Virus record (IMG/VR): IMGVR_UViG_3300020047_012036 | Location: 1-37,218 of that record | DNA length: 37,218 nucleotides | Reading direction: 5' to 3' (one strand) | From: a virus | In this document: one piece after another, positions 3,510-33,799 of the stretch | Layout of the letters: each line of letters opens with the position of its first letter | Numbering within the stretch: position 1 is the stretch's first letter | The notes under the pieces: generated by a model | What the model saw: the letters and a program-made list of their open reading frames with translations, nothing else | Databases searched by the model: none | What the model was told of the DNA's origin: nothing | Translations under genes and position numbers: made by a program

Positions 3510-4151
3510 TTACCACTTCCTTTCAGTATATCCATCGACGTCGATATTCTTGACCATGGCCGGGGAATCGCCGCGTTTGGATCTGCGATATTCCCTGATG
3601 CGAAGGATTTTCATTTCGGTAAATTTATTTCTCGCCCGATCAGAGGCCGCAAAGTTCTTGTCCTTGAACGCCATTTCTGCAACCAGCCCCTCAACTATGA
3701 CGGGATGAAATATGGCGGGCAAAGAAATGGTAGCTGTATTGCTGATGGTTTGTTGGTTGTCGTGGCTGTAAATCAAAAGGGTTTTTGTATCGTCAGGGAC
3801 TGGGAATAGATAAATAACCCGATTCCATAGAACATAGTGCCGAGGGGTTCCAGATCCGTAAGTTCCTGCGCTATTTGTGTATTTTTGATCAGCTTCTTCG
3901 AAAGTAATCTGCTCGATTTTTTTCCCGTCATAGGTCATGCGACGAATATTGATGGCATTGGTTGGGAAATCGTATTCCTGCTGGCTCGCCACCGTTGTAG
4001 TGGAATATTTCCCCTCAATAACCAGCCCGTCGCTTATGATTTCGCAACATAGGCCATAAATGACCTCGTAAAGTTCGGTGTCGGAAAAGAAGTTATCACC
4101 GATCGCGTTGTATCGGTTTCGAGCTGCTTCAATTATTTCGGCAGGGGTCAT
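3510..4151 (-). CDS. Head-tail adaptor or tail tubular protein A-like protein, 213 aa.
   Basis: ORF 3510..4157. The first codon in the track is TTG, so the ATG at 4151 (MTPAEIIEAARNRYN) is preferred. Size and placement immediately upstream of the large tail protein support the call. Confidence 0.45.
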   Translation of the reverse strand: MTPAEIIEAARNRYNAIGDNFFSDTELYEVIYGLCCEIISDGLVIEGKYSTTTVASQQEYDFPTNAINIRRMTYDGKKIEQITFEEADQKYTNSAGTYGSGTPRHYVLWNRVIYLFPVPDDTKTLLIYSHDNQQTISNTATISLPAIFHPVIVEGLVAEMAFKDKNFAASDRARNKFTEMKILRIREYRRSKRGDSPAMVKNIDVDGYTERKW

Positions 4152-4153
4152 GT

Positions 4154-4537
4154 TCAAGTCCAGGTCGTAGAGGGTCGGCTGGACGTGGTGAAGGTTGCGG
4201 TATCATACGTCAAGGCCGACCATGTTGTTGAAATGCGGTTTTCCGCTTCCGTCGATCCGCCCGGGAACACATAGTAATAACCCGAGCCATCCTGCAAAGT
4301 CTCAGAAGTAGTTTCACTCGATACAGTCAAACTTTCTGCGATTTGATGGGATGCCGACTTGACGATATCAGAATCAATCGTCTGGGTTTCATCGACCACA
4401 TGGCCGATAGCAGCCGGTAAATCCTCGCTGGCGTATGCCCACTTATCCGTCCCCCAGAGCATCCCCCCCCAGCTTTCGCTTGGTTCGGGCCCGAATATCA
4501 GGACGGTATTATTGATGGTAATCGATAAATCCGCCAA
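4154..4537 (-). CDS. Hypothetical Ser/Thr-rich virion protein, 127 aa.
   Basis: TTG start at 4537 preceded by GAGGG. Ser/Thr-rich (TVSSETTSETL, TFTTSSRPSTTWT). Co-oriented in the structural block. Confidence 0.55.
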   Translation of the reverse strand: MADLSITINNTVLIFGPEPSESWGGMLWGTDKWAYASEDLPAAIGHVVDETQTIDSDIVKSASHQIAESLTVSSETTSETLQDGSGYYYVFPGGSTEAENRISTTWSALTYDTATFTTSSRPSTTWT

Positions 4538-4559
4538 AATTACCCTCGATTACCAGAAA

Positions 4560-5027
4560 TTAGGACAAAGTTACCCTCGTCGTTACGGTTAGGGTATCGT
4601 TTGCCCCTTTTGTTATCAGGCTCTCGGTGTCACGGGAAAACATAGTCCCCGCGGTCGAACTTGAAAAAAGGCCGTACTCATAAATAGAGCCTGTCCCAAC
4701 GCCCGTCGCAAAAGTCGCAGTGACTTGGAAAATTGCCCCCGAAACATAGGAAACCGTCCCGGTATGCCGAGCCAGCTCCGTCCCTAGGGTCGTGTTCCCA
4801 ACTGCTTCAGCCGTTGCATCGGATCCGATCGCAATATACTTGCAAGTGAAGGTCGATGCTGCCGCTGCTGCAGATTTGAGGAACGACGCCAGGAATTCTT
4901 TCCCCACCGTCGTCACCACGTTTTTACCATGCCGCTCATCTTTCAAAGCGCCATTCGGCCCATATAAATACATGGACCAGAAGCCCTCAACCTTTGCGTC
5001 GCTGTTGCATCCGTAAACGGTTTTCAT
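4560..5027 (-). CDS. Hypothetical virion structural protein, 155 aa.
   Basis: ATG at 5027 overlaps the upstream TGA (TGATG). Beta-rich composition with an Ala/Thr/Gly-rich surface-like sequence. Confidence 0.6.
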   Translation of the reverse strand: MKTVYGCNSDAKVEGFWSMYLYGPNGALKDERHGKNVVTTVGKEFLASFLKSAAAAASTFTCKYIAIGSDATAEAVGNTTLGTELARHTGTVSYVSGAIFQVTATFATGVGTGSIYEYGLFSSSTAGTMFSRDTESLITKGANDTLTVTTRVTLS

Positions 5028-5479
5028 CACATTTCCTTACGTGGTCGACCCGGGCTTTTCTTGACCTGAGCAGCCAGCGCTTCTTCGCTCACAAACGATG
5101 TTTTAGTCTGATTAGCGCTAATTTCTGCCTCTGCCTCGTCATCTTTTGCAAACTGATCGGCGTGATGTTCTTCGGTGTGGGCCGAGAGCTCCCGCGCTGA
5201 CAGGCAAACGTGGCCGCAGGCCATGCATTTGTGGTTGTTTTGAACTTGGATAGGCCGCGCCGGGCCATACTTCCCTTCGATTTCGAGCATTTTGAAGGAT
5301 TCGGGCTTTTGCACCTTGTTGCCGTCAAATTTCGGGGGGTAATACTGTCCACAAAATTGGATAGCGTCCTCACGATCCATTTCGACATATTTGCCAGCGG
5401 GGATTCTGATGATGTCATCTTTGTATCGCTCAACATGATCAGTCGTTTTTCGGTTCCAAATCTTGACGATGCGCTGCAT
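5027..5479 (-). CDS. C2H2 zinc-finger protein with an AT-hook-like C-terminus, 150 aa.
   Basis: ATG at 5479 preceded by GAGG; the track start at 5491 is TTG. Motif C-x2-C-x12-H-x3/4-H in HKCMACGHVCLSARELSAHTEEHH. C-terminal KKSPGRPRK. Confidence 0.65.
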   Translation of the reverse strand: MQRIVKIWNRKTTDHVERYKDDIIRIPAGKYVEMDREDAIQFCGQYYPPKFDGNKVQKPESFKMLEIEGKYGPARPIQVQNNHKCMACGHVCLSARELSAHTEEHHADQFAKDDEAEAEISANQTKTSFVSEEALAAQVKKSPGRPRKEM

Positions 5480-5487
5480 AAAAAACC

Positions 5488-5838
5488 TCAATAAAATACT
5501 AAGTTAAAACAAGCCGTGGTCGCAGTCATGGCGGTGGAAAATTCAACCTTCCAGTATTTGAAACCGCCATGGTCGAGTTCCACGTTACAATTTGTGACCG
5601 AAGAAGCCAAATAGATAGGGCCTGGGTTGGCGTTTGAAATCCCAGGGCTATGGTAAAGGCGGCGATAGGTCGTGCCGTCATGGGACACCTTGAAATAAAT
5701 GTCAGTCCCGGATGCCATCGAATGAATCTCGACGCCAACCCGCTCGAAGTGGCCGGGCAAAGGCCCCATTGCCGTCGAGAGAGTTGCCCCCGATGGCATT
5801 GAGCAGGTGTATTTATAGGGCTGCCAAGGGTAAGTCAT
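5488..5838 (-). CDS. Hypothetical small structural protein, 116 aa.
   Basis: ATG at 5838 with GAAAGGTGG upstream. Co-oriented, with no competing ORF. Confidence 0.6.
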   Translation of the reverse strand: MTYPWQPYKYTCSMPSGATLSTAMGPLPGHFERVGVEIHSMASGTDIYFKVSHDGTTYRRLYHSPGISNANPGPIYLASSVTNCNVELDHGGFKYWKVEFSTAMTATTACFNLVFY

Positions 5839-5855: not shown

Positions 5856-6134
5856 TTAATGGCCGTAAACGTGGAGGTAAAAATGGTCGCCAGACGTGAT
5901 GCCCGTTACCGCGATGTAACCAGGCGATGACGTGCCGGCCGAAAGCACGTTGTGCTTAATCTTTGGGCCGCCTGATGCGCCGGTCGACATGGACCGAGGA
6001 ACGAAATTATAAAAGTCGACGCTCTTTAACCCGGTGGCGAAAGCATCGGAGGCCGCGTCAGCTACGCACGACAGAATGTAAAGAGCCTTGTTGCCAAAAA
6101 CTGTTTTTTCGACAGTCGAAACGCTAAAAGCCAT
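5856..6134 (-). CDS. Hypothetical small Ser/Thr/Gly-rich structural protein, 92 aa.
   Basis: ATG at 6134 preceded by AAAGGGGAAAG. Lies immediately downstream of the Maf-like gene. Confidence 0.6.
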   Translation of the reverse strand: MAFSVSTVEKTVFGNKALYILSCVADAASDAFATGLKSVDFYNFVPRSMSTGASGGPKIKHNVLSAGTSSPGYIAVTGITSGDHFYLHVYGH

Positions 6135-6149
6135 GACTTTCCCCTTTTG

Positions 6150-7169
6150 TTAGAAAACCATGAGGTCCGATGGGACGGCAGGGTTTTCGCATTGTGACCT
6201 GGAATGACGATGAACTGTCATCATCTCGTAAACAAAATCAAGCGGCATTTGGATTATCTGACGGATATTGCCGTCGGGATAGCTTCCTAAACATCCGCCT
6301 TCGCTGGCGTTGATCCAAAACCCGGGCACCGTAGCCGCAATGTATTCAAACCACTGCTTAAAGTTTGCGTACGATGGCCAGCTTGAGACCTTAACGCCGA
6401 AAATATCGGTTAACCGCACAACTTGACCCATATTGCCGTCGTACTTGGAATCCCAGGCATGAAACTTTTCATCATACCCGAAACTAAAATCCGCTCCGAC
6501 AAACACTATGGGGTTGGCCCCACAAATGGCCTTGGCAAAATAAAGGCAAGCCCCAAGGACATTGCCGCCATTACCAAGCCGGGTCGAAAACACTTCATCA
6601 ATTTCCTTGAGACCTTCTTGCATCTTGCGATCGGGTATCGGAGCATTGAAAAAGTAAACCTCACCCTGCCACTTAGCGAGTAACTCGGGATCCGTTCCAA
6701 TGAAAGCAAGTAGTTTGCGCCCTTTGGAGAGATCCCAATATTCTTCAGGGGTCTTTTTCCCCCCCTCGGAAACCTCGTCAACAGTCACCTTCCCAGCATC
6801 AAGGGTGACATAAAAATCGACTCTTGCCCCACTATCCTCCATGGCGTGGAAGTTATGGAGGCAAGAAACTAGCCCGACGCTTTCGGGTCGGTCTTTCAGT
6901 TTGTGAATATTGTTTTTGAGGCTTGGGCCTGATCCTGCAATAATGCAAGGTCGGTTATCGTAGAGTCCCCAGAATTGTCCTAAACCGTGCTCAGCAAAAG
7001 ATCCGTAGGTTTTTTTGTTCTTACGGATGTTTGAAAGCCATGTTTCCCGCCAGTGGTCGATGGTTGGGCCATCGTTTGAGGCAGCGTTTGCTAGCATCTG
7101 CCTCGGGTGCACTGGGGGGTTGTCGATATAATTCTGCAACTCAACAACAATCTCGACCTTTTTTCTCAT
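6150..7169 (-). CDS. Maf/DUF115 (MAF_flag10, MptE-like) family protein; putative nonulosonic-acid glycosyltransferase.
   Basis: The motifs NRPCIIAGSGPSLKNNIHKLK, VDFYVTLDAG and GGNVLGACLYFAKAICGANPIVFVGADFSFGY match my recollection of the motility-associated-factor family core. The start context TTTGAGGTTTAGGGCATG is nearly identical to that of the dehydratase gene at 33448. Confidence 0.65.
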   Translation of the reverse strand: MRKKVEIVVELQNYIDNPPVHPRQMLANAASNDGPTIDHWRETWLSNIRKNKKTYGSFAEHGLGQFWGLYDNRPCIIAGSGPSLKNNIHKLKDRPESVGLVSCLHNFHAMEDSGARVDFYVTLDAGKVTVDEVSEGGKKTPEEYWDLSKGRKLLAFIGTDPELLAKWQGEVYFFNAPIPDRKMQEGLKEIDEVFSTRLGNGGNVLGACLYFAKAICGANPIVFVGADFSFGYDEKFHAWDSKYDGNMGQVVRLTDIFGVKVSSWPSYANFKQWFEYIAATVPGFWINASEGGCLGSYPDGNIRQIIQMPLDFVYEMMTVHRHSRSQCENPAVPSDLMVF

Positions 7170-7201
7170 GCCCTAAACCTCAAAATATTCAAAAACTCAA
7201 A

Positions 7202-7672
7202 TTAAAATACGCTGACGTAAGCCATGCCGGAAGCGCCGGAAGCGATGGCTTCCATGACCTTGCCCAATACCGGGCCGGTATGACCGGTGACGGATGACTT
7301 CATTGCAAAGGTCCCATCAACCCCAACAGTCAGGATTTCACCAACTGCTGCAGAGTTGTTGGCGCCCATTTCAACCGAGGTGAAGCCTTTGGTCAGCAGC
7401 CAACCATAGTAACCCGTTGCAATCGATTCATGCTTGGCAACGCCAACCACGATATCAACGCCGGTCACCGTGGAAACCGTGACGGAATATCCGGTCACTG
7501 CGGACAGGGTTGTCGCATGACCCACGGGAATCACGCTGTTGCCTGCGTTGTAAACAAATCGATACTCCTCGTCACCATAGCGACGGGTGTCACCGACCTG
7601 GGGATCATTGACCCCGCGGGTTGCGGTAACTAAGGAGGGGGTGCCAAAATATGAGCCTTGTCCACCGTACAT
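7202..7672 (-). CDS. Capsid decoration or cement-like protein, 156 aa.
   Basis: ATG at 7672 with CAGGAGA upstream. Located directly after the major capsid gene. Beta-rich Gly/Val/Thr composition typical of small head accessory proteins. Confidence 0.5.
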   Translation of the reverse strand: MYGGQGSYFGTPSLVTATRGVNDPQVGDTRRYGDEEYRFVYNAGNSVIPVGHATTLSAVTGYSVTVSTVTGVDIVVGVAKHESIATGYYGWLLTKGFTSVEMGANNSAAVGEILTVGVDGTFAMKSSVTGHTGPVLGKVMEAIASGASGMAYVSVF

Positions 7673-7696: not shown

Positions 7697-7719
7697 GCCG
7701 GGTTGCCCCGGCCGTTTTT
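7697..7719. terminator. GC-rich stem-loop between the capsid and decoration genes.
   Basis: GCCGGG ttgc CCCGGC. The T5 run follows only on the plus strand. On the coding (minus) strand the hairpin lacks a U tract, so it may be an attenuator or stability element rather than a full terminator. Confidence 0.4.
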
Positions 7720-7729
7720 GGTTTCACAA

Positions 7730-8656
7730 TTAGGCGGTGATTGCCGTCATTGCGCCGTTTTTGCGGTTGTTGTCGCACCCAAAGTTGCCGGCCCAATAAA
7801 TCTTGCCAACCTTGACGTTTTGGTTGGTTGGTTTTTGGAACGGTTCGAAGCGGAAGTCTTCTTCGGGGTGGTAAAACAAGTGCAAGGTGCCTTCGTTCAA
7901 TGCAAACAGATAACCGGTCGGGCAGTAGCTGTCCGCGATGACTGGGATGCCGTTGAACATCAGCGACGTGAAACCAGCCTTAGCGGTCTCGGTGTCGATG
8001 AAACGTTGTTGTGGCTGCAACAGCGCATAGTAGCGGTTGTAAATTGCCTTGGTGGTCATCATGACAGTTGGGTTGTCGTTATCCAACTGGCAGTCAGAAT
8101 ACAAATCTTGCATCGCAGCGACCGAAAGGGTCGTGGTGGAGCTGTCGATTTGCGCCTGGTACCATGAGTTGGAAGTCTGAGAAATGCCGCCAACGGTATT
8201 GGAGGCAGAAACCCAGTTGCGAAGGCCAAGAATTTCTTTGCTGTTGGTGCCAGCAGAGTAAAGGCCGGTACCCATCAGGGTCACGATGGTTTTTTCAGCG
8301 TTTTTCATCTTGGACTTGACGAAATCGACCATTTTTTCGGTGGAGTTGTTTTTCAACTCGTCGATGCGGCTGATGGTGATGTTGGCGTAAGCTTGTTTCC
8401 AAGCAATTTCCGCCGCCGTGAAGGTGTCGTCGTCGCTGGTGTCAAGGGTTTCGGATCCCTCGTACCAAGCCGATGGAACGTCTGCGTATTCCAGGGGCAT
8501 CACGATGGCATCGCCGCCATTGACGGATTCATAGAACTTTTCTTTTGCACGCTTTAAGAGCGGCGACTTGTCAAAAACGTTATCCGCCAATTTCTTGACG
8601 TAATATTTTGATGTGACAGCAGAAACCTGCCCATAATCCACGTTTGGAGCGGTCAT
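7730..8656 (-). CDS. Major capsid protein, 308 aa.
   Basis: Strong SD (AAGGGG) before the ATG at 8656. Canonical portal-scaffold-capsid order. Size and composition are typical of HK97-fold podoviral capsid proteins. Confidence 0.8.
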   Translation of the reverse strand: MTAPNVDYGQVSAVTSKYYVKKLADNVFDKSPLLKRAKEKFYESVNGGDAIVMPLEYADVPSAWYEGSETLDTSDDDTFTAAEIAWKQAYANITISRIDELKNNSTEKMVDFVKSKMKNAEKTIVTLMGTGLYSAGTNSKEILGLRNWVSASNTVGGISQTSNSWYQAQIDSSTTTLSVAAMQDLYSDCQLDNDNPTVMMTTKAIYNRYYALLQPQQRFIDTETAKAGFTSLMFNGIPVIADSYCPTGYLFALNEGTLHLFYHPEEDFRFEPFQKPTNQNVKVGKIYWAGNFGCDNNRKNGAMTAITA

Positions 8657-8669
8657 CTTAAACCCCTTT

Positions 8670-9587
8670 TTAGTTCATGCCAGACTGGCGCAGTTCTTCT
8701 TTGGCCAATTGGCTCAGTTGATCGTATGATTTGCTGCGGATGTCTAATTTCGAAGTTGGTTTTTGGTTCCCGCCGGGGGTTGGTTTTCCACCAATAATCC
8801 CTTGGGCTTTTTTATCCCGACTGTCCTTGAGCATCTGCTCTTTGGCGCGGGTTTCAGCGAGTTTGGTGAGTTCGTCGTGGTAAAAATCTCTGAATGCGGC
8901 CCGGAAGTTCTTGATGCCAGTTTTAGCGGCATGTTCGATGACCCGGAATTCTAAAGATTTGCCCAACTCGTCCCGCTGGTCGAAGTCGATATCTTTGTAT
9001 TCATTTTTCACACCTTTGATTTCATTGTCAAGGGCGCTGTCTTCTTTTTCAATGTCAAAGGACTTGAACCGCTCTGACAGTTGGGTTTCGAGCCCCTTGA
9101 TCTGGTCGTGGAGGCTGATGACAGTTTTCGTTAGGGGGTTGTCTGGATCCGCCATAAGACCGGACTTCCATTGATCCCGGCGATTCCACTGCTCCTCAAG
9201 GAATTTGTTATAGTCAGGGTTTTCCTTGGCAAAGCGCTCATATTCTTCCCAGCGCTTGACCCGGGATTCAAGATCCCCTTTGGTTTTTTCAAAATCCCCA
9301 AGCTGTTTGTTAAGACCTTCCATATGTTGGGCATAATTATACCCTTGAGAAGCCCGCTTCAGGATCATTTCCAAAGGTTCGCGAATAGGCTTACCGTTGG
9401 CGGTGTATTCTACCTCGTCTTTAATTCTTGAGGTCCACCATGGCTCCTCTTTTTTTCCCGCGTCGGGTGGTGGGGTGCCAGGTGATTCGGTGGACTTGGG
9501 TGCGGCGTCCATACCTGGAGCTGGATTTTCATTGCCTTGCCCTCCTCCGACCGAAGAAAGCATTTCCTGTGCGCTCATTCCATCCAT
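8670..9587 (-). CDS. Scaffolding protein, 305 aa.
   Basis: Highly charged, helical, Lys/Glu/Asp-rich sequence between portal and capsid. The ATG at 9587 (MDGMSAQEM) is preceded by GAGGTG; the track start at 9596 is GTG and overlaps the SD. Confidence 0.7.
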   Translation of the reverse strand: MDGMSAQEMLSSVGGGQGNENPAPGMDAAPKSTESPGTPPPDAGKKEEPWWTSRIKDEVEYTANGKPIREPLEMILKRASQGYNYAQHMEGLNKQLGDFEKTKGDLESRVKRWEEYERFAKENPDYNKFLEEQWNRRDQWKSGLMADPDNPLTKTVISLHDQIKGLETQLSERFKSFDIEKEDSALDNEIKGVKNEYKDIDFDQRDELGKSLEFRVIEHAAKTGIKNFRAAFRDFYHDELTKLAETRAKEQMLKDSRDKKAQGIIGGKPTPGGNQKPTSKLDIRSKSYDQLSQLAKEELRQSGMN

Positions 9588-9622
9588 AGAATTCACCTCA
9601 AAAATTAAAAATCAAAATGTTA

Positions 9623-11774: not shown

Positions 11775-12110
11775 TTAAACCTCATTCCATCGGCGGGCGC
11801 ATTTTTCTTCGATTTGCTTTTCGCTGGATGCGTGAAGCTTGTTCGGATCCTCATTGCCTATTTCTTCGACACCGTATTTTCGCATGAGTTCCTTTTTGTG
11901 TCGATTACTCTTAACAATTTGGCCAAAGGCGGGGGAATATTCAGCCTTGTTCCAATCGTCTGCGCCGTAAAAATGGAAAGTCCGGGCGATGGTTCGCTTT
12001 GTGTCCGCTGATTTACAACTTGCGCAGTTCTCTGGGTTGTCAATTTCTGCAATTCTTTTCGTAACCTCAAATTCATGACCGCACGCAATGCAGATATAGG
12101 GGTAGATCAA
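11775..12110 (-). CDS. FmdB/CxxC zinc-ribbon family protein, 111 aa.
   Basis: YPYICIACGHEFEV...CASCKS matches the CxxC...CxxC zinc ribbon signature. TTG start at 12110 overlaps the terL stop (TTGA). Confidence 0.6.
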   Translation of the reverse strand: MIYPYICIACGHEFEVTKRIAEIDNPENCASCKSADTKRTIARTFHFYGADDWNKAEYSPAFGQIVKSNRHKKELMRKYGVEEIGNEDPNKLHASSEKQIEEKCARRWNEV

Positions 12111-13426
12111 GCGCTAAACCTCTCGGAAAACTGGTCTCCTCGACCGATTCTTCTTCTCTTTTGTGCTCTGCGGATTGGATCGCTGGTTTCTCCCGGGATT
12201 ATAACCGAGCGTCTCGGCCCGTCAACCATGCATTCCATAATCGTTATATATCGGTTGGTGTCCATGGCGTGGTCATTAACTTTGACCGGGTTCTTTTCCT
12301 TAATGTCTTTGTCTACCTTCATTTCGTCGGGGGCCGGGTAATGGTAGCTTTCGTACTCATCGACCGTGTGGGGGCTGGTCCCCGCGAAGATCTTATACCG
12401 CCCGGATTTGATCAACTGATAATGGCGGTCGATCCCCGCCTCAATGGTGTTATCAGCCGCCATAGCCCTAAGCCCTGCTTTGTTGAGCTCAAGAATTAAG
12501 GCGATGGCCGAGGGGTCGCACCAGAAATATTCGATGCCCCATATTTTCGCCTTGGCCTTGGCGATGTCGACCATTTCGGTAATTCTTAAGCCGCTCTTAT
12601 AATGCTCTGACACCTGGTAATGCTCGCCGTTGGGCAGGATGGCTCTGACGGTCAGGACAAATGGGTTGGTGGTACCGAAGTCAATGCCCCCCACAAACCT
12701 GGTCCGCTCTGGGAGAGTAAACGGCGCAACCAGGCAGTCGTCATTCCAGCAGTCATAGACAAGGCCGTCCATTTTGTCGAATTCCCCACCGAACATCATC
12801 TTGAACCGACGGGGGTCCATGGTGCGCTTGCGTTTTTCGTATGCGTGTCGATTAAAATATAGGTTTTCGAGGCTGGTGGCTTGAAATATCCGGGCTTCTG
12901 GTAATGCCGATGGGTCGCGGCGCTTTGGCTTAATGAGATCTTTCCACACCCAATTCAAGGAATAGGGCGAGGTAACAAGGAATATGGGGGCGTCAAGAAA
13001 CCCCGCCCGACCTTGGATGTTTTCCCAGAAATAAAGGCTGTAAAGCCCAGCCTCATCCCCCAGGATCGCTCGGACGTTTGTCATACCAACTATGGAATCG
13101 GGTTTAGTGCCGGTACGAAACCATACCTTGCCCCCATTGTAAATCTGAAAATACATGTCCCCGGGATGGAATTTCCCCAGGCCTTCCATAGCCCGGAGAA
13201 ATGGGGGGAGGGTTGATTGTTGCAGAATCGGGTAGGTTGGACTTGTAATGATGAAATTATCATCAGGTGAGCGATACTTATGGCACTGCATTTTCAGCCA
13301 GAGCGATCCGACTGTTGTTTTCCCCCACTGGATCCCGGTGGCACACAGGACAAGCTTGACCTCGGGATTATCCTCGGTAGCAAAAAGAGCTTCTTCCTGC
13401 TTTGTCGAATGGGGGGTAAATAGCAT
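12107..13426 (-). CDS. terL: Terminase large subunit, 439 aa.
   Basis: Walker A-like GIQWGKTT, Walker B ILGDEAG, and C-terminal nuclease acidic motifs GGIDFGTTNPF and VNDHAMDTNRY. Confidence 0.9.
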   Translation of the reverse strand: MLFTPHSTKQEEALFATEDNPEVKLVLCATGIQWGKTTVGSLWLKMQCHKYRSPDDNFIITSPTYPILQQSTLPPFLRAMEGLGKFHPGDMYFQIYNGGKVWFRTGTKPDSIVGMTNVRAILGDEAGLYSLYFWENIQGRAGFLDAPIFLVTSPYSLNWVWKDLIKPKRRDPSALPEARIFQATSLENLYFNRHAYEKRKRTMDPRRFKMMFGGEFDKMDGLVYDCWNDDCLVAPFTLPERTRFVGGIDFGTTNPFVLTVRAILPNGEHYQVSEHYKSGLRITEMVDIAKAKAKIWGIEYFWCDPSAIALILELNKAGLRAMAADNTIEAGIDRHYQLIKSGRYKIFAGTSPHTVDEYESYHYPAPDEMKVDKDIKEKNPVKVNDHAMDTNRYITIMECMVDGPRRSVIIPGETSDPIRRAQKRRRIGRGDQFSERFSA

Positions 13427-14337
13427 CAGGCTCCGAAGTGTTCGGTTGTTAAAAACTCGCCGTCAGCAAGTTCCCTTGCCTTCATTATAAGACTGTCATT
13501 GATATCTGAGTCAAGGGGTTGGACCTTGTTATACACTTTTTGCCGACTGCGGACGACTTTAACCTCCCCATCGATGTTGGCAAAGCCTCGCTTATGATCC
13601 TCGACAAACTCAATATCACCATAGTCCACCGAGTAAACGTAATCACCCGCCTCAATCTTAGTGACCATGGCCATAAATATATCTGACGGCACGCTATGGG
13701 GCCAGTCCGGGGAGGTTCGCTGGGCGCTCGATGGGCGAAAGTGCTTTTCCACGTAATCTATGCCGTAGAGGGCTGCGTTGACGGCCAACTCCTCATCCTC
13801 GGTATGGTCTGACAGCCCGATCTTAAGGTAGGGGAACTGCTGTTTGAGAATTAGAATATTCGTCAGGTCATATTGGGTTTTGTCAGCCGGATAGCATGGG
13901 ATGCAATATAGCAACCCGTCGCCGTCGACAGCCCCCAACTTGTTCGCTTTCACGATCCGCTCAATCTCATCAATACCGGATCCTCCCGTTGAAATGATGC
14001 GGGGTATTTTGCGCGGGAAATTGAACACCATATTGTTTTCAGCCGAGGCCACCTTGTAAAAATCGACGTGACGGGAAACGAGGTCAACCCCCTCCTGGGA
14101 AAAGGCAGAAATACCGAACATCAACCCCTCATCCTGGGCCGCTTGCCGCAGCTTAGGGATCCATGCCCCGTTCAGCAGCCGGTCGCTACTGCCCCGGCCA
14201 TATAGCTCGACCTCATTGAAAAACTGGAACTTGACGGCATCGGCCCCAGCCTGCGCTGCCTCGGTAATTGCGAGTAAGGCTGAGCTGAAGGAATCGATGT
14301 TGCTGCCGATTTCGGCAATAAAAATAGGCCTTTTCAT
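13426..14337 (-). CDS. NeuB/PseI/LegI-family nonulosonic acid synthase, 303 aa.
   Basis: IAEIGSNIDSFSSALLAITEAAQAGADAVKFQFF, YKVASAENN, IISTGGSGIDEIERIV and YCIPCYPA...IGLSDHT align with NeuB-family hallmark segments. The stop shares one base with the terL ATG. Confidence 0.8.
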   Translation of the reverse strand: MKRPIFIAEIGSNIDSFSSALLAITEAAQAGADAVKFQFFNEVELYGRGSSDRLLNGAWIPKLRQAAQDEGLMFGISAFSQEGVDLVSRHVDFYKVASAENNMVFNFPRKIPRIISTGGSGIDEIERIVKANKLGAVDGDGLLYCIPCYPADKTQYDLTNILILKQQFPYLKIGLSDHTEDEELAVNAALYGIDYVEKHFRPSSAQRTSPDWPHSVPSDIFMAMVTKIEAGDYVYSVDYGDIEFVEDHKRGFANIDGEVKVVRSRQKVYNKVQPLDSDINDSLIMKARELADGEFLTTEHFGA

Positions 14338-14366
14338 TGACTAAACTCCAAATAATAATTTCTGAT

Positions 14367-14440
14367 GGTAATTATTTACCTTAGAAAAAGGTTTAAATAA
14401 ATAGGTGTTTTACCTTATTGTTTCATGGGTTTATAAGGTA
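14367..14440. promoter_or_regulatory. Repeated half-sites in the only divergent intergenic region; candidate operator or promoter region.
   Basis: Palindrome GGTAAttatTTACC (14367-14380). TTTACCTTA occurs at 14375-14383 and 14409-14417. The inverted copy TAAGGTA is at 14434-14440. The region is AT-rich and lies between the minus-strand NeuB-like gene and the plus-strand island. Confidence 0.35.
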
Positions 14441-17024: not shown

Positions 17025-17052
17025 TCAAAATTATTCCGGCACCATAAAATCT
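17025..17052. repeat. 28 bp direct repeat, copy 1 of 2 (one mismatch against 17551-17578).
   Basis: tcaaaattattccggcaccataaaatct compared with tcataattattccggcaccataaaatct. A 24 nt core is identical. Confidence 0.9.
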
Positions 17053-17055
17053 GAT

Positions 17056-17258
<203 letters not shown>

Positions 17259-17271
<13 letters not shown>

Positions 17272-17540
17272 ACAGGAACCCCCTCAATCGATTTCCGTGC
17301 CGCATCAGTCACATCGAGAATCTCAATCGCTTGCAATAACTCGACCCGATCGACCATACATGGAAATTTGCAATTGCTAGGGTCCTTGGTTCCCTCCATT
17401 GCAAGCTGACTCAAGCTAGCCGCACCAGACCAATACCAAATACGCCGCGCTTTTCTTAACACAACCTCTTGACCGTTTCGTGATTCTAACTCGCCTGCAA
17501 ACACACCCGCTGAAAACGTCCGCACAAGCACATACTTCAT
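17259..17540 (-). CDS. Conserved phage hypothetical protein, 93 aa.
   Basis: ATG at 17540 (MKYVLVRTFSAGVFAGELESRNG...) preceded by AAAGGGA. The sequence resembles a widespread small phage protein family of unknown function as I recall it; I could not confirm the family name. Confidence 0.6.
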
Positions 17541-22071: not shown

Positions 22072-22270
22072 ATTTTTCGTTGCTCCTGTGATAGGTTTTC
22101 GGGCCGTTTATCGGCTCGAAGTTTGCGCGAAACCAGTCATCTGCAACTATTATACATCGGGTTGATAGGGGGCAGGGGTCCATAAGCGCCCAAGTCCCAT
22201 CGGAAAGCCTTTCGGCCTCCCAATATTGGAATTTTGCTTTGAAAATGGTGGGATTTTTATTATCCCTCAC
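22049..22270 (-). CDS. Hypothetical protein, 73 aa.
   Basis: ATGA-type overlap with the upstream large gene at 22267-22270. Confidence 0.5.
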   Translation of the reverse strand: MRDNKNPTIFKAKFQYWEAERLSDGTWALMDPCPLSTRCIIVADDWFRANFEPINGPKTYHRSNEKYGPFVEN

Positions 22271-24294: not shown

Positions 24295-24356
24295 AATTTG
24301 CCGCCCCTTTCGTATGCCTTGCGCCGCATCGTTAAAACTCCAGATTTGTGTTTGGG

Positions 24357-28720: not shown

Positions 28721-28964
28721 TTTCTTCCCTTTCATTTGCATAGGCCCAAGCGTCATCGTGATATTTGGGAGTTTTGCGGGTTTTTGGAATTTCTACCAAT
28801 CGTCCGCGATTGATCTCATAACCGTCACTTACCATATTTATGGGTTCGCTTGGCGTTGTCAATAGGTCAGGGACGCGCTCAAGAAAAACCCAAAGCGCAA
28901 TTGACTGAACGACTGCGCAGATGACCAAAGCCACAAAGATTCCTAAAAGGAGAATGTCCGTCAC
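28713..28964 (-). CDS. Single-pass membrane protein, 83 aa; holin or spanin candidate.
   Basis: GTG at 28964 preceded by GGAGGA at 6 nt, and overlapping the GNAT stop (GTGA). TM segment ILLLGIFVALVICAVVQSIALWVFL. Confidence 0.5.
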   Translation of the reverse strand: MTDILLLGIFVALVICAVVQSIALWVFLERVPDLLTTPSEPINMVSDGYEINRGRLVEIPKTRKTPKYHDDAWAYANEREENG

Positions 28965-29506
28965 GGTGTTTCCTCCCGTCGGCACCAGTCTTTTTTTGCC
29001 CATTCTGATTCGAGGATTGACCAAATTTCGGAGGAAACCATTTTCCCAGCTTTGAAATAGCTTTCGCGCAACCGTCCCTCAAACTCAAAACCAAGTGCAC
29101 CATAAAGCCCTGCTGCTGGATTTCCCATGATGGTCTCACCCCAAATGCGATTAAGCCCGAGGTTGGCGAAGCCGTGGCAAATTAGGGTCTGCAGTGCGGT
29201 TTTTCCGAGACCTTTGCCCATGTGACCGGGCTCGACGTAAATCGAAAACTCTGCCTTGCGGTTATGCTGATCAATATCAGTCAGGCCGCAAACGCCTACC
29301 GTTTTGTCCCCTGAAATTACCGAATACATGGAAATGGCTGGATCGCGGACGATCTTGTCATGCCAGGCGACTTGATTGCCCGGGGCGATAAGGTCGTATT
29401 GGCGGCACCATCGGCGGATCGTGTACTTGTTCCGCCAGCCCATAAGTTCGCGGCCCTGAAGGGGGTCGACTGGTCCGAGTTTGACGCCGAAGCCAAAGTC
29501 AATCAT
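28961..29506 (-). CDS. GNAT-family N-acetyltransferase, 181 aa (PseH/RimL-like).
   Basis: The WRNK...RRW N-terminal region and the acetyl-CoA binding segment VEPGHMGKGLGKTALQTLICHGF...LGF. Confidence 0.75.
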   Translation of the reverse strand: MIDFGFGVKLGPVDPLQGRELMGWRNKYTIRRWCRQYDLIAPGNQVAWHDKIVRDPAISMYSVISGDKTVGVCGLTDIDQHNRKAEFSIYVEPGHMGKGLGKTALQTLICHGFANLGLNRIWGETIMGNPAAGLYGALGFEFEGRLRESYFKAGKMVSSEIWSILESEWAKKDWCRREETP

Positions 29507-29509
29507 AAT

Positions 29510-29767: not shown

Positions 29768-30017
29768 TTATAATTCTTTCGTTTTTCAAGATTTTTTGCA
29801 TGATGCAAACAACATCATAGGCTGTGATTTTCTCGCCGATTCCATACCCTGTCAGTTCGCGACAAGCGTGATCGGCGCGCTTGTAAGTTTCATTCGCTGC
29901 CGCTTCGCCATCGGTTCTAGCTTTATGGGCGTCCTCAATTCTGCCTTTGACAAACTCGACAGCCGCGGCCAATCCGTTGATTTTTACCTCGTTTTCAACA
30001 ACTTTTAACTCAGTCAT
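29760..30017 (-). CDS. Hypothetical protein, 85 aa.
   Basis: The ATG at 30017 (MTELKVVENE) overlaps the aminotransferase stop by 8 nt. The longer track ORF to 30188 would lie inside the aminotransferase gene. Confidence 0.5.
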   Translation of the reverse strand: MTELKVVENEVKINGLAAAVEFVKGRIEDAHKARTDGEAAANETYKRADHACRELTGYGIGEKITAYDVVCIMQKILKNERIINE

Positions 30018-31173
30018 TTTTTCTAACCCTTTCCGCAAACGGAGATTGTGGTAAATCGCCTCGTAAAGATATTTCAGATCGGTTAACCCTATGAACGATG
30101 TCACCGATGACGCTAATAACATGGTCGGTATCCCCTGGGTGAGCGTAGTTAAAAAACCACGAGGGGCCAAATAAAATTCCCGCCTCACAAGCTTCCTGGA
30201 AAAGCAGGGCTTTAGTCAATGGATCGCCTTCGAAAATCCCCCGTGTGGGGTATCCTTTTATCTTTACATTGATGGGAAATTCATTAAAGAAGTCGATAAA
30301 TCTTTGACCGTGCTCCCAAAGGTCGGAAATCTTATGGCGGCGCATGAATTCTGCTGTTTTTAGCCACCCCAATAGGGCGCTGGTTTCAGCCGCAAAGGTA
30401 CTGCTCACAAAATACCCAGGGTTGTCCATGATGTTTTTCTTGCCGCCCACAACTGACAGGGGGTATCCCCCGCCTAAAGCCTTTCCGAGGCAAACTATGT
30501 CAGGGCAAATTCCCCAATGTTTCGCTACCGAATGGCCATCGAAGCGCAAGCCGGTTATGACCTCATCGAAAATGAGGACCACGGCGTGCTTATCGCATTT
30601 TTCCCGAAGCCGCAAAAGCCATTCACGACGTCCCTGTCCCCAGTCTGCGATTACAGGCTCGACAATTATGGCTGCAGGTATCTCGCCGCTTTCCCAGCCA
30701 TCCTCGAGTTTTTTAATCCATGGCCGCGGCCCCGGGATGCCTGCGGCGGGGGTTGTTAACGAAACGAAGTCATCGCTATGCCCGTGATAACCCTCTGACA
30801 GGATCAAGCTACGGCCGGTATGGGCCCGGGCAATTTTGATGGCCGCGGCGCAAGCCTGGGTGCCGGTCTTAAGAAATTTTAGCTTTTCGATAAAAGGGAA
30901 AAAGTCGATAACCTTTTCCGCCGCTTCTGCCTCGATTAGCGTGGGAAAGCTGGAATTGATGGCCGGGAGCTGCAGAATTTGCCCGGTCAGGTTTGCCCCA
31001 AGCCCGCAGATGTAATCGATATATGTCTGGCCGAGAGCATCGACCAGCTTGTTTCCCACTTGTTTTTGAAAAACTTTGGGATACACCCCGCCAATATGGG
31101 ATCTTGGGTGTTTACTGTTTGTCAGGCATCCTTGCGCGATAACTTTTTGATATCGATTCCAATAATCAGACAT
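30010..31173 (-). CDS. Class III (glutamate-1-semialdehyde aminomutase-like) PLP aminotransferase, 387 aa.
   Basis: Overall length and the segments YIDYICGLGANLTG, SEGYHGHSDDF and LIFDEVITGLRF are typical of the Aminotran_3 family. ATG at 31173 preceded by TTATTATTTGGAGTTAAG; the track start at 31188 is TTG. Confidence 0.75.
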   Translation of the reverse strand: MSDYWNRYQKVIAQGCLTNSKHPRSHIGGVYPKVFQKQVGNKLVDALGQTYIDYICGLGANLTGQILQLPAINSSFPTLIEAEAAEKVIDFFPFIEKLKFLKTGTQACAAAIKIARAHTGRSLILSEGYHGHSDDFVSLTTPAAGIPGPRPWIKKLEDGWESGEIPAAIIVEPVIADWGQGRREWLLRLREKCDKHAVVLIFDEVITGLRFDGHSVAKHWGICPDIVCLGKALGGGYPLSVVGGKKNIMDNPGYFVSSTFAAETSALLGWLKTAEFMRRHKISDLWEHGQRFIDFFNEFPINVKIKGYPTRGIFEGDPLTKALLFQEACEAGILFGPSWFFNYAHPGDTDHVISVIGDIVHRVNRSEISLRGDLPQSPFAERVRKND

Positions 31174-31203
31174 AAAACTTAACTCCAAATAATAAAATAC
31201 AAA

Positions 31204-31917
31204 TTACAAACGCCAAATAAGCCGCTTTTTCATTCCATAAGCTGACTGCAGCTTTGTTTTCAGCGATTCCACCTGCCCCTTAACGCGCTCCAGGTCGCCC
31301 ATTGTGTCGACTGACAGCTTAATTTGTGACCGATCGACAAAGCCTATGATATGGCCGATCTTAGCCCAACCCGGGGGCTGCTGCCTGAAAAGGATCGTCA
31401 CATGCTCCCGCTGCTCTTTGGTTTTTGCGTTGTCGTTCAACCAAGACAGAGCTTCAATTGATAAAACTTCGCAATCCCAGCCGTCAATTTCTGTCCTGAA
31501 TTTTTCATCAACATTCGAAACGTAATCAGCGTCATAATCTTTCGCACACTTGATATGCTTAACCACGACGAACGGGGGAAGTAAGGGGCAATCCCCGGTT
31601 AATCGCACCACAAAATCGTAGTCATCTGTTTGGGATGCCTCCCAAAAACGCGCCAAAACGTCATGCTCATCACCTTCAAAAACAGGTATTAGGTTCGAAA
31701 AGTGAGTCTTTAACGGATCGCCGTCAGGAACTAAAAGCATCACTCTGATATCGATCTGCTCACCTTTGGAGCGCCCCATATATTCCCGAACATTGAGCGC
31801 TGTATTTATCACATGCTCAACAACAGGCTTCCCGTCAAGTTCGGCCATTGATTTATTTGGGAACCGCTGGCTACTGCTCCTCGCTTGGATGCCAATCAGT
31901 ACCTTTTTTGTTTTCAT
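31204..31917 (-). CDS. Cytidylyltransferase, 237 aa, of the SpsF/NeuA (CTP_transf_3) type.
   Basis: IGIQARSSSQRFPNKSMAELDGKPVVEHVI matches the N-terminal nucleotide-binding signature of acylneuraminate/SpsF cytidylyltransferases. ATGA overlap with the upstream gene. Confidence 0.75.
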   Translation of the reverse strand: MKTKKVLIGIQARSSSQRFPNKSMAELDGKPVVEHVINTALNVREYMGRSKGEQIDIRVMLLVPDGDPLKTHFSNLIPVFEGDEHDVLARFWEASQTDDYDFVVRLTGDCPLLPPFVVVKHIKCAKDYDADYVSNVDEKFRTEIDGWDCEVLSIEALSWLNDNAKTKEQREHVTILFRQQPPGWAKIGHIIGFVDRSQIKLSVDTMGDLERVKGQVESLKTKLQSAYGMKKRLIWRL

Positions 31918-32555
31918 ATTTCACCTTCGAGATACGAGTGAACTTTTCGATGGGAATTCGCGATGTATTCTAATTCCGCTTTCCAGTCGAAAGAATTAGG
32001 GATAAACGCTGCGTTCAAAAACCGCTTAATGTTTTCTATATACGCATAATCCATCATATCAGGGAAAACCGTTGATCCATTAATTTTGCAACCCCAAATA
32101 GGGCTTTTATTCGACAGCCTGATTATGCCTGAGCTCAGTCCAATGATGTTAATGCAGTCCCAAATAAGACCATCGGCGCCCGATTTGAAATAATCATATG
32201 ACGTTACACCTTCTTTATTAAATTTCCCTAGGTGTCGATACTGATTAATCATCATCAATTTGAAGGGACTTGATCCGAATTTTGATACCAAAAGTTCGAT
32301 CGCGGCTTTGCTTTTAGTGATTGGCTTTTCTGCTAACAAGGGGACGTCCGCGGCGGTTTCAAGATGGCCTAAAATCGTATCGTAATGGTTAAAGGTAGGG
32401 GTTGCGTCGATGACCGCCCCGAAATGGCCGTGGGCTGGCTTAGGGCCGCCCTGCTTAACGTCAAATCCGACCCACTTTACTTCGAGGAAATTAAGGATTG
32501 AGGCATAACGCTGCCCCATGTTCCCCAGGTGGCCTAGCAATAAAACTTCGCTCAT
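31914..32555 (-). CDS. Gfo/Idh/MocA-like oxidoreductase, 213 aa (short).
   Basis: N-terminal dinucleotide-binding-like LLLGHLGNMGQRY and the family EKP motif in LLAEKPI. ATGA overlap with the dehydratase stop. Confidence 0.6.
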   Translation of the reverse strand: MSEVLLLGHLGNMGQRYASILNFLEVKWVGFDVKQGGPKPAHGHFGAVIDATPTFNHYDTILGHLETAADVPLLAEKPITKSKAAIELLVSKFGSSPFKLMMINQYRHLGKFNKEGVTSYDYFKSGADGLIWDCINIIGLSSGIIRLSNKSPIWGCKINGSTVFPDMMDYAYIENIKRFLNAAFIPNSFDWKAELEYIANSHRKVHSYLEGEI

Positions 32556-33448
32556 GGATTGGCCTCCACCAATTTTCTGACAAGTGGCTCAAGCTTTAAA
32601 ATTAATTCATCGTGAGTAAATCGCTCAGAAACAAGGCTTGATTTTAATGGGGTGAGATTTTCGTGCAACTTTTCCCCCACTCCGATACCAACAACCTCAT
32701 AGTGCCAGTTTTTGACGCCTAGGATGGTCGCAATGGCCGACGCCACGTCCAAAACAGGGGCCGACCTATAGTCTGGGATGAATTCCCCGACGTAACCGCG
32801 CACCGTATCGATGCTATCGTGGGCCTTTACTTTTCCAATAAGGAATGACACGGCATCCTCAATATTGAGCCAAAATCTCGTCATTCTAGGGTCTGTGATT
32901 GCGACCCTAGCGGTTGATCTTAGGCTCTCGACAAAAATAGGGATAACCGAACCACGGCTACCCATGATGTTTCCCCATCGAAAGTGCATAAGCTTCATTT
33001 TGCTTTGACCGGCCACAAATTCTCGCAGGGACTTTTCAGCGATGGCCTTGGTCATGCCGTAAATATTAATCGGCAAAACAGCCTTATCAGTAGTGGAAAA
33101 AATGAACCTGTCAGTATAACCCGACCTAATGGCCGAGCGCATTACGTTAGCCGTACCCTCGACGTTAGTTCGGATAGCCTCCAGAGGCTGGTTTTCGCAA
33201 ACGTCCACATGCTTCATTGCTGCAAAGTGGTAAACGTGATCGTAGTCGTGGCGCAGAAAAACATCGTCAACTGCCACTCTGTCGCGGATATCGCAAACAA
33301 TAGTTTTGATGTTCGGGAACTGCTTCTTTAGTTGTTTTTGCTTGATCTCATCGCGGGAAATTACGGTGATTTTTGCAGATTTATAAGCCTGCCTGACAAA
33401 TTCAGTTCCTAGCGTGCCGGTTCCACCGACAACTAAATAATCGTCCAT
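32552..33448 (-). CDS. PseB/FlaA1/CapD-family UDP-GlcNAc 4,6-dehydratase, 298 aa.
   Basis: Segment-by-segment match to my recollection of Helicobacter FlaA1: GGTGTLG, SRDEIKQ, CDIRD, AAMKHVDVCENQPLEAIRTNVEGT, STDKAVLPINIYGMTKAIAEK (YxxxK), RWGNIMGSRGSVIPIF, ITDPRMTRFW, GEKLHE. Confidence 0.85.
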   Translation of the reverse strand: MDDYLVVGGTGTLGTEFVRQAYKSAKITVISRDEIKQKQLKKQFPNIKTIVCDIRDRVAVDDVFLRHDYDHVYHFAAMKHVDVCENQPLEAIRTNVEGTANVMRSAIRSGYTDRFIFSTTDKAVLPINIYGMTKAIAEKSLREFVAGQSKMKLMHFRWGNIMGSRGSVIPIFVESLRSTARVAITDPRMTRFWLNIEDAVSFLIGKVKAHDSIDTVRGYVGEFIPDYRSAPVLDVASAIATILGVKNWHYEVVGIGVGEKLHENLTPLKSSLVSERFTHDELILKLEPLVRKLVEANP

Positions 33449-33466
33449 GCCCTAAACTCCAAATAA

Positions 33467-33745: not shown

Positions 33746-33799
33746 AAAATAAACTCCAAATAATTTAATACAGATCATGCCTCATTTCTTTCGATATTG

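Follow-up and report, generated by a model that had tools for sequence, protein, structure and literature searches.

In bacteria, Maf transferases O-glycosylate flagellin, and binding of flagellin is conferred by the TPR domain of Maf-1 or, for Maf-2, by the partner protein GlfM (10.1101/2023.12.03.569772). In mycobacteriophages, virions are glycosylated by phage-encoded glycosyltransferases (Freeman et al. 2023, via PMC12619734 and PMC11256854). Here we describe a Maf-like gene that lies among the head genes of an uncultured phage, on IMG/VR record IMGVR_UViG_3300020047_012036 (positions 1-37,218; this whole stretch of 37,218 nt is referred to as the window), in a genome that also encodes enzymes for making a sialic-acid-like sugar. 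The reading we favor, with a probability of roughly 0.55, is that a late, cytoplasmic Maf-type transferase puts a phage-made nonulosonic acid resembling pseudaminic acid (Pse) on surface proteins of the virion, chiefly the cement protein and/or the major capsid protein (MCP). The new element is the proposed tie of a Maf and a nonulosonate pathway to the virion; virion glycosylation in mycobacteriophages, as far as the citing accounts describe it, and O-glycosylation of flagellin by Maf are already known.

The window begins and ends with an exact direct repeat of 121 nt (positions 1-121 are identical to 37098-37218). The contig is either circularly closed or terminally repetitive; because its ends are identical it is a complete genome, of 37,097 bp, and therefore no genes are hidden off the contig. 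The bacterial Mafs with which the phage protein can be compared (the Magnetospirillum magneticum enzyme 5MU5, CbMaf, GkMaf, and Maf-1 and Maf-2 of Shewanella) share with it the family PF01973, the best fold match, the catalytic acids, the GPSL, GxD and EGG motifs, the character of a cytoplasmic enzyme, and a genomic linkage to NeuB-family, PseB-like and CMP-transferase genes. They measure ~580-660 aa, whereas the phage form has 339 aa and lacks their N- and C-terminal accessory domains; unlike them, it is without a TPR domain, has no nearby gene for a GlfM-like four-helix partner, carries lineage-specific inserts, and is encoded in the head-tail operon of an apparently lytic phage. No flagellin or other flagellar gene was found in the complete phage genome in library scans of the open reading frames (ORFs) of the window. 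The likeness to the mycobacteriophage system is that there, too, a phage-encoded glycosyltransferase is proposed to act in the cytoplasm on the phage's own capsid or tail subunits, giving a glycan-coated virion. As that system is presented in the two citing sources, its enzymes are conventional glycosyltransferases and not Maf, its sugars are not nonulosonic acids, and no phage CMP-sugar pathway is involved; it belongs to siphoviruses of Actinobacteria and has been shown experimentally, whereas the acceptor in the window phage is inferred only.

A minimal Maf-type transferase

The gene at the center of this analysis is the following:

6150..7169, minus strand: minimal Maf-type (PF01973) transferase, 339 aa, ATG start

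A first-pass annotation, made without database searches, had recognized the core of a Maf or MptE-like transferase in the segments IIAGSGPSL, VDFYVTLD and GADFSFGY of this 339-aa ORF, all of which are present (within CIIAGSGPSLK, RVDFYVTLDAG and VGADFSFGYDE), and both the profile search and the structural comparison it had proposed came out in favor of that assignment. The protein matches Pfam PF01973 (MptE-like / Maf_flag10 / DUF115) with E = 9e-22. Its 78.1 bits exceed the gathering cut-off of 34.6, and the alignment spans residues 43-231 of the protein and nearly the whole profile (positions 2-169 of 171). A precomputed PF01973 domain is likewise present in all 120 of the homologs listed. 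PHROGs held no family for the Maf-like protein, the cement protein or the small neighbors, and an NCBIfam scan of the Maf-like protein returned nothing meaningful. An AlphaFold2 model built on 33 homologs reached a mean pLDDT of 93.4 and a pTM of 0.91, and when it was compared with the PDB using Foldseek the top match was the M. magneticum Maf glycosyltransferase 5MU5 (E = 4.1e-10, 299 aligned columns). Second came the archaeal MptE hydroxymethyldihydropterin pyrophosphokinase (HPPK) 8sd5 (E = 4e-5, ~220 aligned columns, TM 0.36-0.38); the human sialyltransferase ST8SiaIII was also matched (E = 9e-5, up to 250 columns), with ST6Gal and ST6GalNAc ranked lower. The model thus places the protein in the modified GT-A fold of the Maf central domain, which is related to sialyltransferases. 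Sequence profiles agree with this order, since in HMMER the profile of the Maf-like family matched 5mu5 among PDB sequences at E = 1.6e-4, with D124 aligned to E324, and the 8sd5 sequence at E = 0.11.

When 1.84 billion cluster representatives were searched exhaustively with HMMER, 35 clusters matched at E < 1e-30, 120 at E < 1e-10 and 994 at E < 1e-3. Among the proteins matched, at 26-32% identity, are some of 580-640 aa, as long as bacterial Mafs; residues ~35-295 of the query correspond to ~190-445 of these proteins, which is their central domain. In a joint alignment of the Maf-like family with 13 bacterial-size Mafs, G81, S83, L84, N87, D124, G201, V204, G225, D227 and E290-G-G are invariant, and the key conserved positions of the phage protein can be summarized as G79xGPSL84, D124 (LDAG), G201-G202-N203-V204, G225-A-D227 and E290-G-G. 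In the M. magneticum Maf, the acidic positions 324 and 415 are reported to be critical, and their equivalents have been mutated in CbMaf (D272, D357) and in GkMaf (10.1101/2020.06.03.131540). By alignment, both catalytic acidic positions appear to be conserved in the phage protein as D124 and D227, the correspondence of D227 to position 415 being assigned from its place in the motif.

Around this shared core the phage proteins lack some 190 N-terminal and some 170 C-terminal residues of the bacterial-size Mafs, and with them, as judged from the alignment, the flagellin-binding N- and C-terminal domains are absent. They have acquired lineage-specific inserts, an invariant E135-G-G...Y144-W145 and GSYPDGN. 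Within the structural module no protein is more conserved than the Maf-like one, in which 20% of the columns are at least 95% identical vs 14% for the MCP. It is a genuine PF01973 protein that bears the catalytic signature of Maf and is pared down to the catalytic domain plus short extensions particular to its lineage; it is very probably a Maf-type nonulosonate transferase.

Genes for a proposed sugar donor

Six further genes, one beside the large terminase subunit gene (TerL) and five in a cluster, have the functions expected of a pathway that supplies a Maf with its donor:

13426..14337, minus strand: NeuB-family nonulosonic acid synthase, 303 aa, PF03102 E = 1.2e-32, directly upstream of TerL
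32552..33448, minus strand: PseB-like UDP-GlcNAc 4,6-dehydratase, 298 aa, PF02719 E = 7.6e-67, first gene of the cluster
31914..32555, minus strand: short Gfo/Idh/MocA-type NAD(P) oxidoreductase, 213 aa, with GxxGxxG, ATPTxxH and CEKP motifs
31204..31917, minus strand: CMP-sugar synthetase (cytidylyltransferase), 237 aa, PF02348 CTP_transf_3 E = 7.7e-15
30010..31188, minus strand: class-III (glutamate-1-semialdehyde-aminomutase-like) pyridoxal-phosphate aminotransferase, 392 aa, PF00202 E = 1.4e-31
28961..29506, minus strand: PseH-like GNAT N-acetyltransferase, 181 aa, found at the same position in relatives

The presence of sugar genes on the same genome, as first annotated, was upheld for the NeuB family, the PseB-like enzyme, CTP_transf_3, the class-III aminotransferase and the PseH-like GNAT. 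Set against the canonical CMP-pseudaminic acid pathway (PseB-PseC-PseH-PseG-PseI-PseF), the best matches of the phage proteins are to PseB (2gn4), PseI (8h2c), PseH (TIGR03585) and enzymes of the PseF/KdsB type. The best solved relative of the NeuB-family protein is the pseudaminic acid synthase 8h2c (E = 2.4e-17). The PseB-like protein has FlaA1/PseB 2gn4 as its best PDB match (E = 5e-45) and scores 205 bits against TIGR03589 PseB, which has a cut-off of 408, and the GNAT matches TIGR03585 PseH with E = 7e-17 and 62 bits vs a cut-off of 93. For the 237-aa cytidylyltransferase, the KdsB and PseF matches are weak and the PDB matches are cytidylyltransferases. The class-III aminotransferase, all of whose NCBIfam matches lie below cut-offs, stands where the Pse pathway has a PseC-type enzyme. 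PF01408 matches 17 of 18 lineage homologs of the 213-aa protein (best E = 3.3e-11), the window copy itself falling below threshold; this oxidoreductase is a truncated form. We considered the same ORF as a PseG analog and ruled this out, given that its motifs and PF01408 identify it as a Gfo/Idh/MocA oxidoreductase.

These genes travel with Maf across the lineage. Of the 51 Maf-anchored loci that contain TerL, 41 have a NeuB homolog just upstream of it, and among the 10 that lack one only two (L020 and L080) offer over 3.5 kb of available sequence on that side. The cluster was reached in relatives by anchoring on a conserved gene for a 631-aa protein (the RecT-like gene, used as anchor for the same purpose, yielded nothing), and cluster genes were detected in 21 of the 22 loci with at least 9.5 kb downstream of it, mostly as partial sets in loci that end inside the cluster, with a single gene in two of the 21 (L091 and L118). 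In four of the 21 the cluster is on the opposite strand. Maf and the six sugar genes add up to 5,910 bp, which is 15.9% of the genome.

A motif shared among these genes, AAACTCCAAATAAT on the plus strand and ATTATTTGGAGTTT on the coding strand, occurs at 14338-14367, 31175-31204, 33428-33467 and 33746-33775, just upstream of the starts of the NeuB gene, the class-III aminotransferase gene, the PseB-like gene and a 103-aa ORF (33467-33778). It may serve the sugar genes jointly as a signal for translation initiation or regulation, though these lie in two distant places.

Distribution and a fixed place beside the capsid genes

Four further features define the surroundings of the Maf gene, which lies 11-32 nt from its neighbors:

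7730..8656, minus strand: major capsid protein, 308 aa, phrog_9953 major head protein, E = 1.6e-57
7202..7672, minus strand: capsid cement/decoration protein, 156 aa, immediately upstream of Maf and directly after the MCP gene
5856..6134, minus strand: 92-aa protein, immediately downstream of Maf, without Pfam or PHROG match
3510..4157, minus strand: SU10-type head-tail adaptor, PF24175, E = 1.7e-15, marking the downstream end of the Maf-containing head module

A word-indexed search, clustered at 90%, recovered 1,631 proteins; the best 120 of these are all ~337 aa long and 53-73% identical to the Maf-like protein, many of them on contigs of 36-40 kb, and at least 156 IMG/VR contigs encode a Maf relative. 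'MptE-like' annotated proteins also occur in uncultured-phage entries of BFVD/UniProt. A collection of 185,579 species genomes gave only three matches, all on contigs of metagenome-assembled genomes (two of 4-6 kb and one of 32.9 kb), and because of this the lineage appears to be lytic and uncultured. The taxa assigned to the three contigs (Saccharibacteria, Glaciecola and an unnamed bacterium) are unrelated; the matches are likely binning artefacts and hence of no use as a host assignment.

In the 131 loci compared, the genes follow one another in an essentially invariant order: MCP, cement protein (156 aa), Maf, 92-aa protein and, further on, adaptor. The cement gene directly precedes Maf in 104 of 116 loci (median gap 26.5 nt), the 92-aa gene comes directly after it in 119 of 128 (median gap 11 nt), and the MCP gene lies upstream of cement and Maf in all relatives. 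This includes two distant ones, L158 and L159 (~32% Maf identity), which preserve the arrangement: L159 reads portal ... MCP (312 aa), 168 aa, Maf (319 aa), 77 aa, 57 aa, adaptor, and L158 reads MCP (310 aa), 176 aa, Maf (385 aa), 112 aa, 115 aa, second Maf (342 aa), SU10 adaptor. Family profiles recover the L159 counterparts of the 156-aa protein (the 168-aa protein, E = 6e-16) and of the 92-aa protein (the 77-aa protein, E = 1.5e-7). Profile searches detected no counterparts of the other small head-tail proteins in L158 or L159, and since only the MCP, the 156-aa protein, Maf and the 92-aa protein have counterparts detected in the distant relatives, we regard these four as the conserved core.

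The two Maf paralogs in the head module of L158 (Logan SRR30650671 contig, 24.8 kb), at 6142-7299 (385 aa) and 8001-9029 (342 aa), lie one after the MCP and a small protein and the other just before the SU10-type adaptor, with S-adenosylmethionine-dependent methyltransferase genes nearby. By analogy, the pair recalls bacteria with both Maf-1 and Maf-2 and may point to a second acceptor or a second sugar.

Candidate acceptors

Besides the conserved core, the module contains four small genes between the 92-aa gene and the adaptor:

5488-5838, minus strand: 116-aa small head-tail module protein
5027-5491, minus strand: 154-aa small head-tail module protein
4560-5030, minus strand: 156-aa tail-fiber-like protein, phrog_5417
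4154-4537, minus strand: 127-aa protein, Ser plus Thr 30%

The flanking ORFs to which the first-pass annotation had pointed (7202-7672, 5856-6134, 5488-5838 and 4154-4537) are all in place, and its description of the 7202-7672 product as decoration-like holds. PF09956 Phage_cement_2 matches 15 of 37 homologs of this protein (best E = 1e-5), the window copy being sub-threshold. A structural model (pLDDT 80.2) matches the base of the phi29 head-fiber protein gp8.5, the capsid asymmetric unit of Pam3 (chain G), HFTV1, T1 and TW1, with lambda gpD matched more weakly, and all fold matches at E <= 1e-3 are capsid decoration or head-fiber-base proteins. We assign it to the capsid cement proteins, a group of beta-tulip trimers; it is likely trimeric, and we consider it the prime candidate acceptor. 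It contains a Ser/Thr-rich stretch, S57-A-V-T-G-Y-S-V-T-V-S-x-x-T-x-x-D73, in which S57, G61, Y62, S63, T65, S67 and D73 are invariant among 37 homologs of 49-72% identity and over which model confidence is lower (block mean 61). This stretch is a candidate modification site or may simply be a structural strand, and we note it as a lead only.

The MCP is the second candidate acceptor. The 92-aa protein is a candidate in either of two roles, as acceptor or as a partner that aids Maf in recognizing its acceptor, and the small proteins encoded at 4154..5838, which are less widely conserved than the core, are possible further acceptors. Ser plus Thr make up 29.9% of the 4154-4537 product and 20.7% of the 5856-6134 product, in line with the Ser/Thr richness originally noted for these two; the values are 19.9% for 7202-7672 and 16.6% for the MCP, vs ~9-12% in enzymes of the same genome, and the bias is conserved in homologs. 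Such richness is ordinary in beta-rich virion proteins and for that reason carries little weight alone.

Within the 57-nt gap between the stop codon of the MCP gene and the start of the cement gene, there is a GC-rich hairpin, GCCGGG-n4-CCCGGC, at 7697-7712. It could be an attenuator or an mRNA-stability element that sets the ratio of MCP to cement and Maf expression.

A proposed route to a glycosylated capsid

The identity of the enzyme and the presence of a donor pathway are well supported; we infer the identity of the donor, O-linkage to Ser/Thr, the acceptor and the biological benefit. The Maf-like enzyme would be made late and in the cytoplasm, together with the capsid proteins. The PseB-like dehydratase, the Gfo/Idh/MocA oxidoreductase, the class-III aminotransferase, the GNAT and the NeuB/PseI-like synthase would build a Pse-like 5,7-diamino nonulosonic acid, which the CMP-transferase would activate to the CMP-sugar used by Maf. 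Maf would then transfer the sugar from this donor to Ser/Thr hydroxyls on the virion surface, before or during head assembly, with the likely trimeric cement protein and/or the MCP as the most likely acceptors and the 92-aa neighbor or fiber-like proteins as other possible ones. The particle would thereby acquire an acidic coat of sialic-acid-like sugar, and the benefit might lie in surface charge and hydration, in protection from proteases or antibodies, or in a role in adsorption.

A minimal Maf that has been retargeted in this way is plausible because flagellin binding depends on the TPR domain or GlfM (10.1101/2023.12.03.569772) and because CbMaf recognizes individual surface-exposed Ser/Thr residues in local conformations and glycosylates such sequences when they are grafted on an unrelated beta-sandwich (PMC11339370). 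From the same two studies it follows that the choice of acceptor cannot be read from sequence. We consider it somewhat better than even that the acceptors are virion proteins. For the fuller statement, that a large, globally distributed lineage of uncultured podophages makes a sialic-acid-like sugar and O-glycosylates its capsid (cement and/or MCP) with a minimal Maf, the odds seem to us about even.

Points against this route and alternative explanations

Several observations weigh against the proposed glycosylation of the virion, and our interpretation should be read with these in mind. First, the central inference is circumstantial. Conserved Ser/Thr columns make up 3.2% of the MCP and 2.6% of the cement protein vs 2.9% of Maf itself, so that there is no enrichment, and we dropped the prediction of acceptors by conserved Ser/Thr columns as non-discriminating. 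The initial proposal that virion proteins are the acceptors stands on the conservation of sugar genes and capsid synteny with Maf, and gains nothing from the Ser/Thr columns. Second, a PseG/LegG/NeuC-type hydrolase was not found anywhere in the complete genome, and the pathway looks incomplete; several sugar-gene scores are below NCBIfam equivalog cut-offs, a full set of the six PseBCHGIF equivalogs was not recovered, and the pathway is non-canonical. In place of the DegT/PseC-type aminotransferase of the canonical Pse pathway the phage has one of class III, plus the Gfo/Idh/MocA oxidoreductase. Because of the class-III aminotransferase, the extra oxidoreductase and the failure to find a PseG/LegG-type hydrolase, the sugar is not demonstrably canonical Pse or legionaminic acid (Leg). 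The gene content suggests an unusual nonulosonic acid or reliance on a host enzyme, and the product may be a different or derivatized nonulosonic acid. The earlier idea of a nonulosonic acid on the virion retains the dedicated synthase and the conserved five-gene cluster, and has to do without a demonstrably canonical sugar.

Third, the active site deviates from that of bacterial Mafs at one position. The bacterial motif G-G/A-S-V, with Ser in 13 of 13 sequences, is an invariant GGNV in the phage family, with Asn at position 203; in other homologs the third position is His (GGHV in P0162, a distant relative) or Ser (GGSV in P0146). A Ser near the active site is reported to be required for activity in CbMaf (S334) and GkMaf (S356) (10.1101/2020.06.03.131540), and from the alignment this is probably the residue that Asn203 replaces. 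Fourth, GenBank phages gave no match to Maf (tblastn, E up to 1), to NeuB (tblastn) or to 20 kb of DNA (megablast), and no cultured relative was found among them; the nearest cultured phages by MCP are ~30% identical and lack Maf. In the available part of its contig, L159 has no NeuB gene next to TerL. Finally, all characterized Mafs, to our knowledge, act on flagellins only.

This last point also speaks for a different use of the same genes. In this alternative the targets of Maf and the sugar pathway would be host proteins such as flagellin, pilin, the S-layer or others at the surface, or the pathway would supply the glycan synthesis of the host, and the altered cell surface would, for example, block superinfection or stop progeny from re-adsorbing to debris. 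Every characterized Maf glycosylates flagellin, and phage-encoded surface-modifying enzymes are a known theme. The architecture of the locus argues the other way: the gene belongs to a late head operon in which it lies close to its neighbors, which would be poor timing for exported host structures in the lytic cycle of a lineage that appears lytic, and its place beside the capsid genes is preserved even in distant relatives. The phage protein is, moreover, without the N- and C-terminal domains of bacterial Mafs, and flagellin binding needs the TPR domain (Maf-1) or GlfM (Maf-2) (10.1101/2023.12.03.569772). The host flagellin or pilin alternative raised in the first-pass annotation is thus weakened by the missing flagellin-binding domains and the late structural operon; it is still a rival, but an unlikely one.

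One may also postulate a Maf fold with another chemistry or target, namely an MptE-like kinase or pyrophosphokinase, or an anti-defense transferase acting on a cytoplasmic host protein, with the sugar genes unrelated to it. PF01973 does include the MptE HPPK, whose structure 8sd5 is the second-best fold match (E = 4e-5) and shares a Rossmann-like core with the phage protein, and the change of the Maf-conserved Ser to Asn would fit an altered activity. Yet the match to the Maf fold is five orders of magnitude better and longer (299 vs 224 aligned columns), and both the Maf catalytic acids and the C-terminal EGG motif of bacterial-size Mafs are invariant. Archaeal MptE is ~215 aa long; the phage protein exceeds the ~215-240 aa of this group, has its best similarity elsewhere, carries the Maf-like C-terminal EGG and lacks the pterin or folate context, family scans of the window ORFs having found no pterin or folate genes. 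It is co-conserved across the lineage with a NeuB synthase and a CMP-transferase, which is exactly what a Maf needs, and we consider this explanation improbable.

We know of no Maf-family enzyme that acts on DNA. A further possibility is that the Maf-like enzyme transfers the sugar to the DNA of the phage (hypermodification) or to some molecule that is not a protein; a precedent exists in phage glycosyltransferases that hypermodify DNA with diverse glycans (10.1101/2023.12.21.572611), but we rejected DNA hypermodification and consider this explanation very improbable, as the Maf gene is in the head module and not the replication module, the cytosine/thymidine hydroxymethylase, TET/5mYOX and DNA methyltransferase families were not found among the window ORFs scanned, and no DNA-modification family was found in the 30 remaining ORFs scanned or among the larger ORFs.

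If a phage Maf does coat the capsid with a nonulosonic acid, protein O-glycosylation with sialic-acid-like sugars would extend from bacterial flagella to phage capsids. Full-text searches turned up no publication in which a Maf or a nonulosonate pathway of a phage is connected with virion proteins, and no GenBank phage was found to describe a system of Maf and nonulosonate genes; in the literature and collections that we searched, it would rank as the first bacteriophage virion coated with nonulosonic acid and the first Maf substrate other than flagellin. The enzyme would represent a minimal, self-sufficient Maf catalytic unit of ~340 aa that recognizes its acceptor without TPR or GlfM modules. 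That a 37-kb phage devotes ~16% of its genome to the coating of its particle would imply strong selection on virion surface chemistry, possibly for stability, for avoiding non-productive adsorption, for evading grazers, proteases or antibodies, or for host recognition. A compact Maf of 339 aa with a small, well-folded candidate acceptor would be attractive for studying how Maf chooses Ser/Thr sites, a question that is open in flagellin systems, and the pairing of Maf and cement protein would be attractive for glyco-engineering of phage or virus-like particles.

Genome layout and other observations

The phage is a podophage of an uncultured lineage with a portal and an adaptor of the SU10 type, and its minus strand carries nearly all genes. 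Two further features of the head region are as follows:

9943-11772, minus strand: portal, phrog_156, with a match to the SU10/P22 portal family in relatives
8670-9596, minus strand: 308-aa protein at the scaffold position, without family match

Transcription order runs from the NeuB-family synthase (13426-14337) through TerL (12107-13426), a Zn-ribbon protein and the portal to a 103-aa protein, the 308-aa protein, the MCP, the 156-aa cement protein and Maf, and then through the small proteins of 92, 116, 154, 156 and 127 aa to the SU10-type adaptor, the 631-aa protein and further tail genes, and over the junction to the sugar cluster at 28961-33448. Other genes encode a lysozyme, Gam-like and RecT-like proteins, a trypsin-like protease and an HNH endonuclease. 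A search for tRNA genes in the genome found none, and no DNA polymerase, primase or helicase families were recognized anywhere in it with the libraries used. Two large ORFs, 22267-24387 (706 aa) and 34649-36697 (682 aa), are without a significant Pfam or PHROG family.

The NeuB-family gene fills the slot directly upstream of TerL, the usual place of the small terminase subunit (as in the distant relative BUCT555), and no recognizable small terminase subunit was found in the window. In L159 a gene for a radical-SAM/SPASM-domain protein (912-1871) lies upstream of the terminase region, where the window lineage has NeuB. The Zn-ribbon protein that follows TerL (11775-12110, 111 aa) is conserved across the lineage. 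An ORF listed as 36694-37206 (170 aa) is cut by the end of the contig; the real gene joins 36694-37097 to 1-617, and its product of 341 aa, assigned to phrog_13634, agrees with homologs of 330-415 aa in relatives. Lastly, the early region contains a tandem array of 6-nt units (GCCAGA/GCCATC/GCCATA) at 17035-17304, which in a minus-strand frame forms a mini-ORF of ~70 aa encoding a Gly-Ser/Tyr/Asp repeat protein, MDEVNC(GS/GY/GD)n, and in other frames gives LW or AM/AL repeats.

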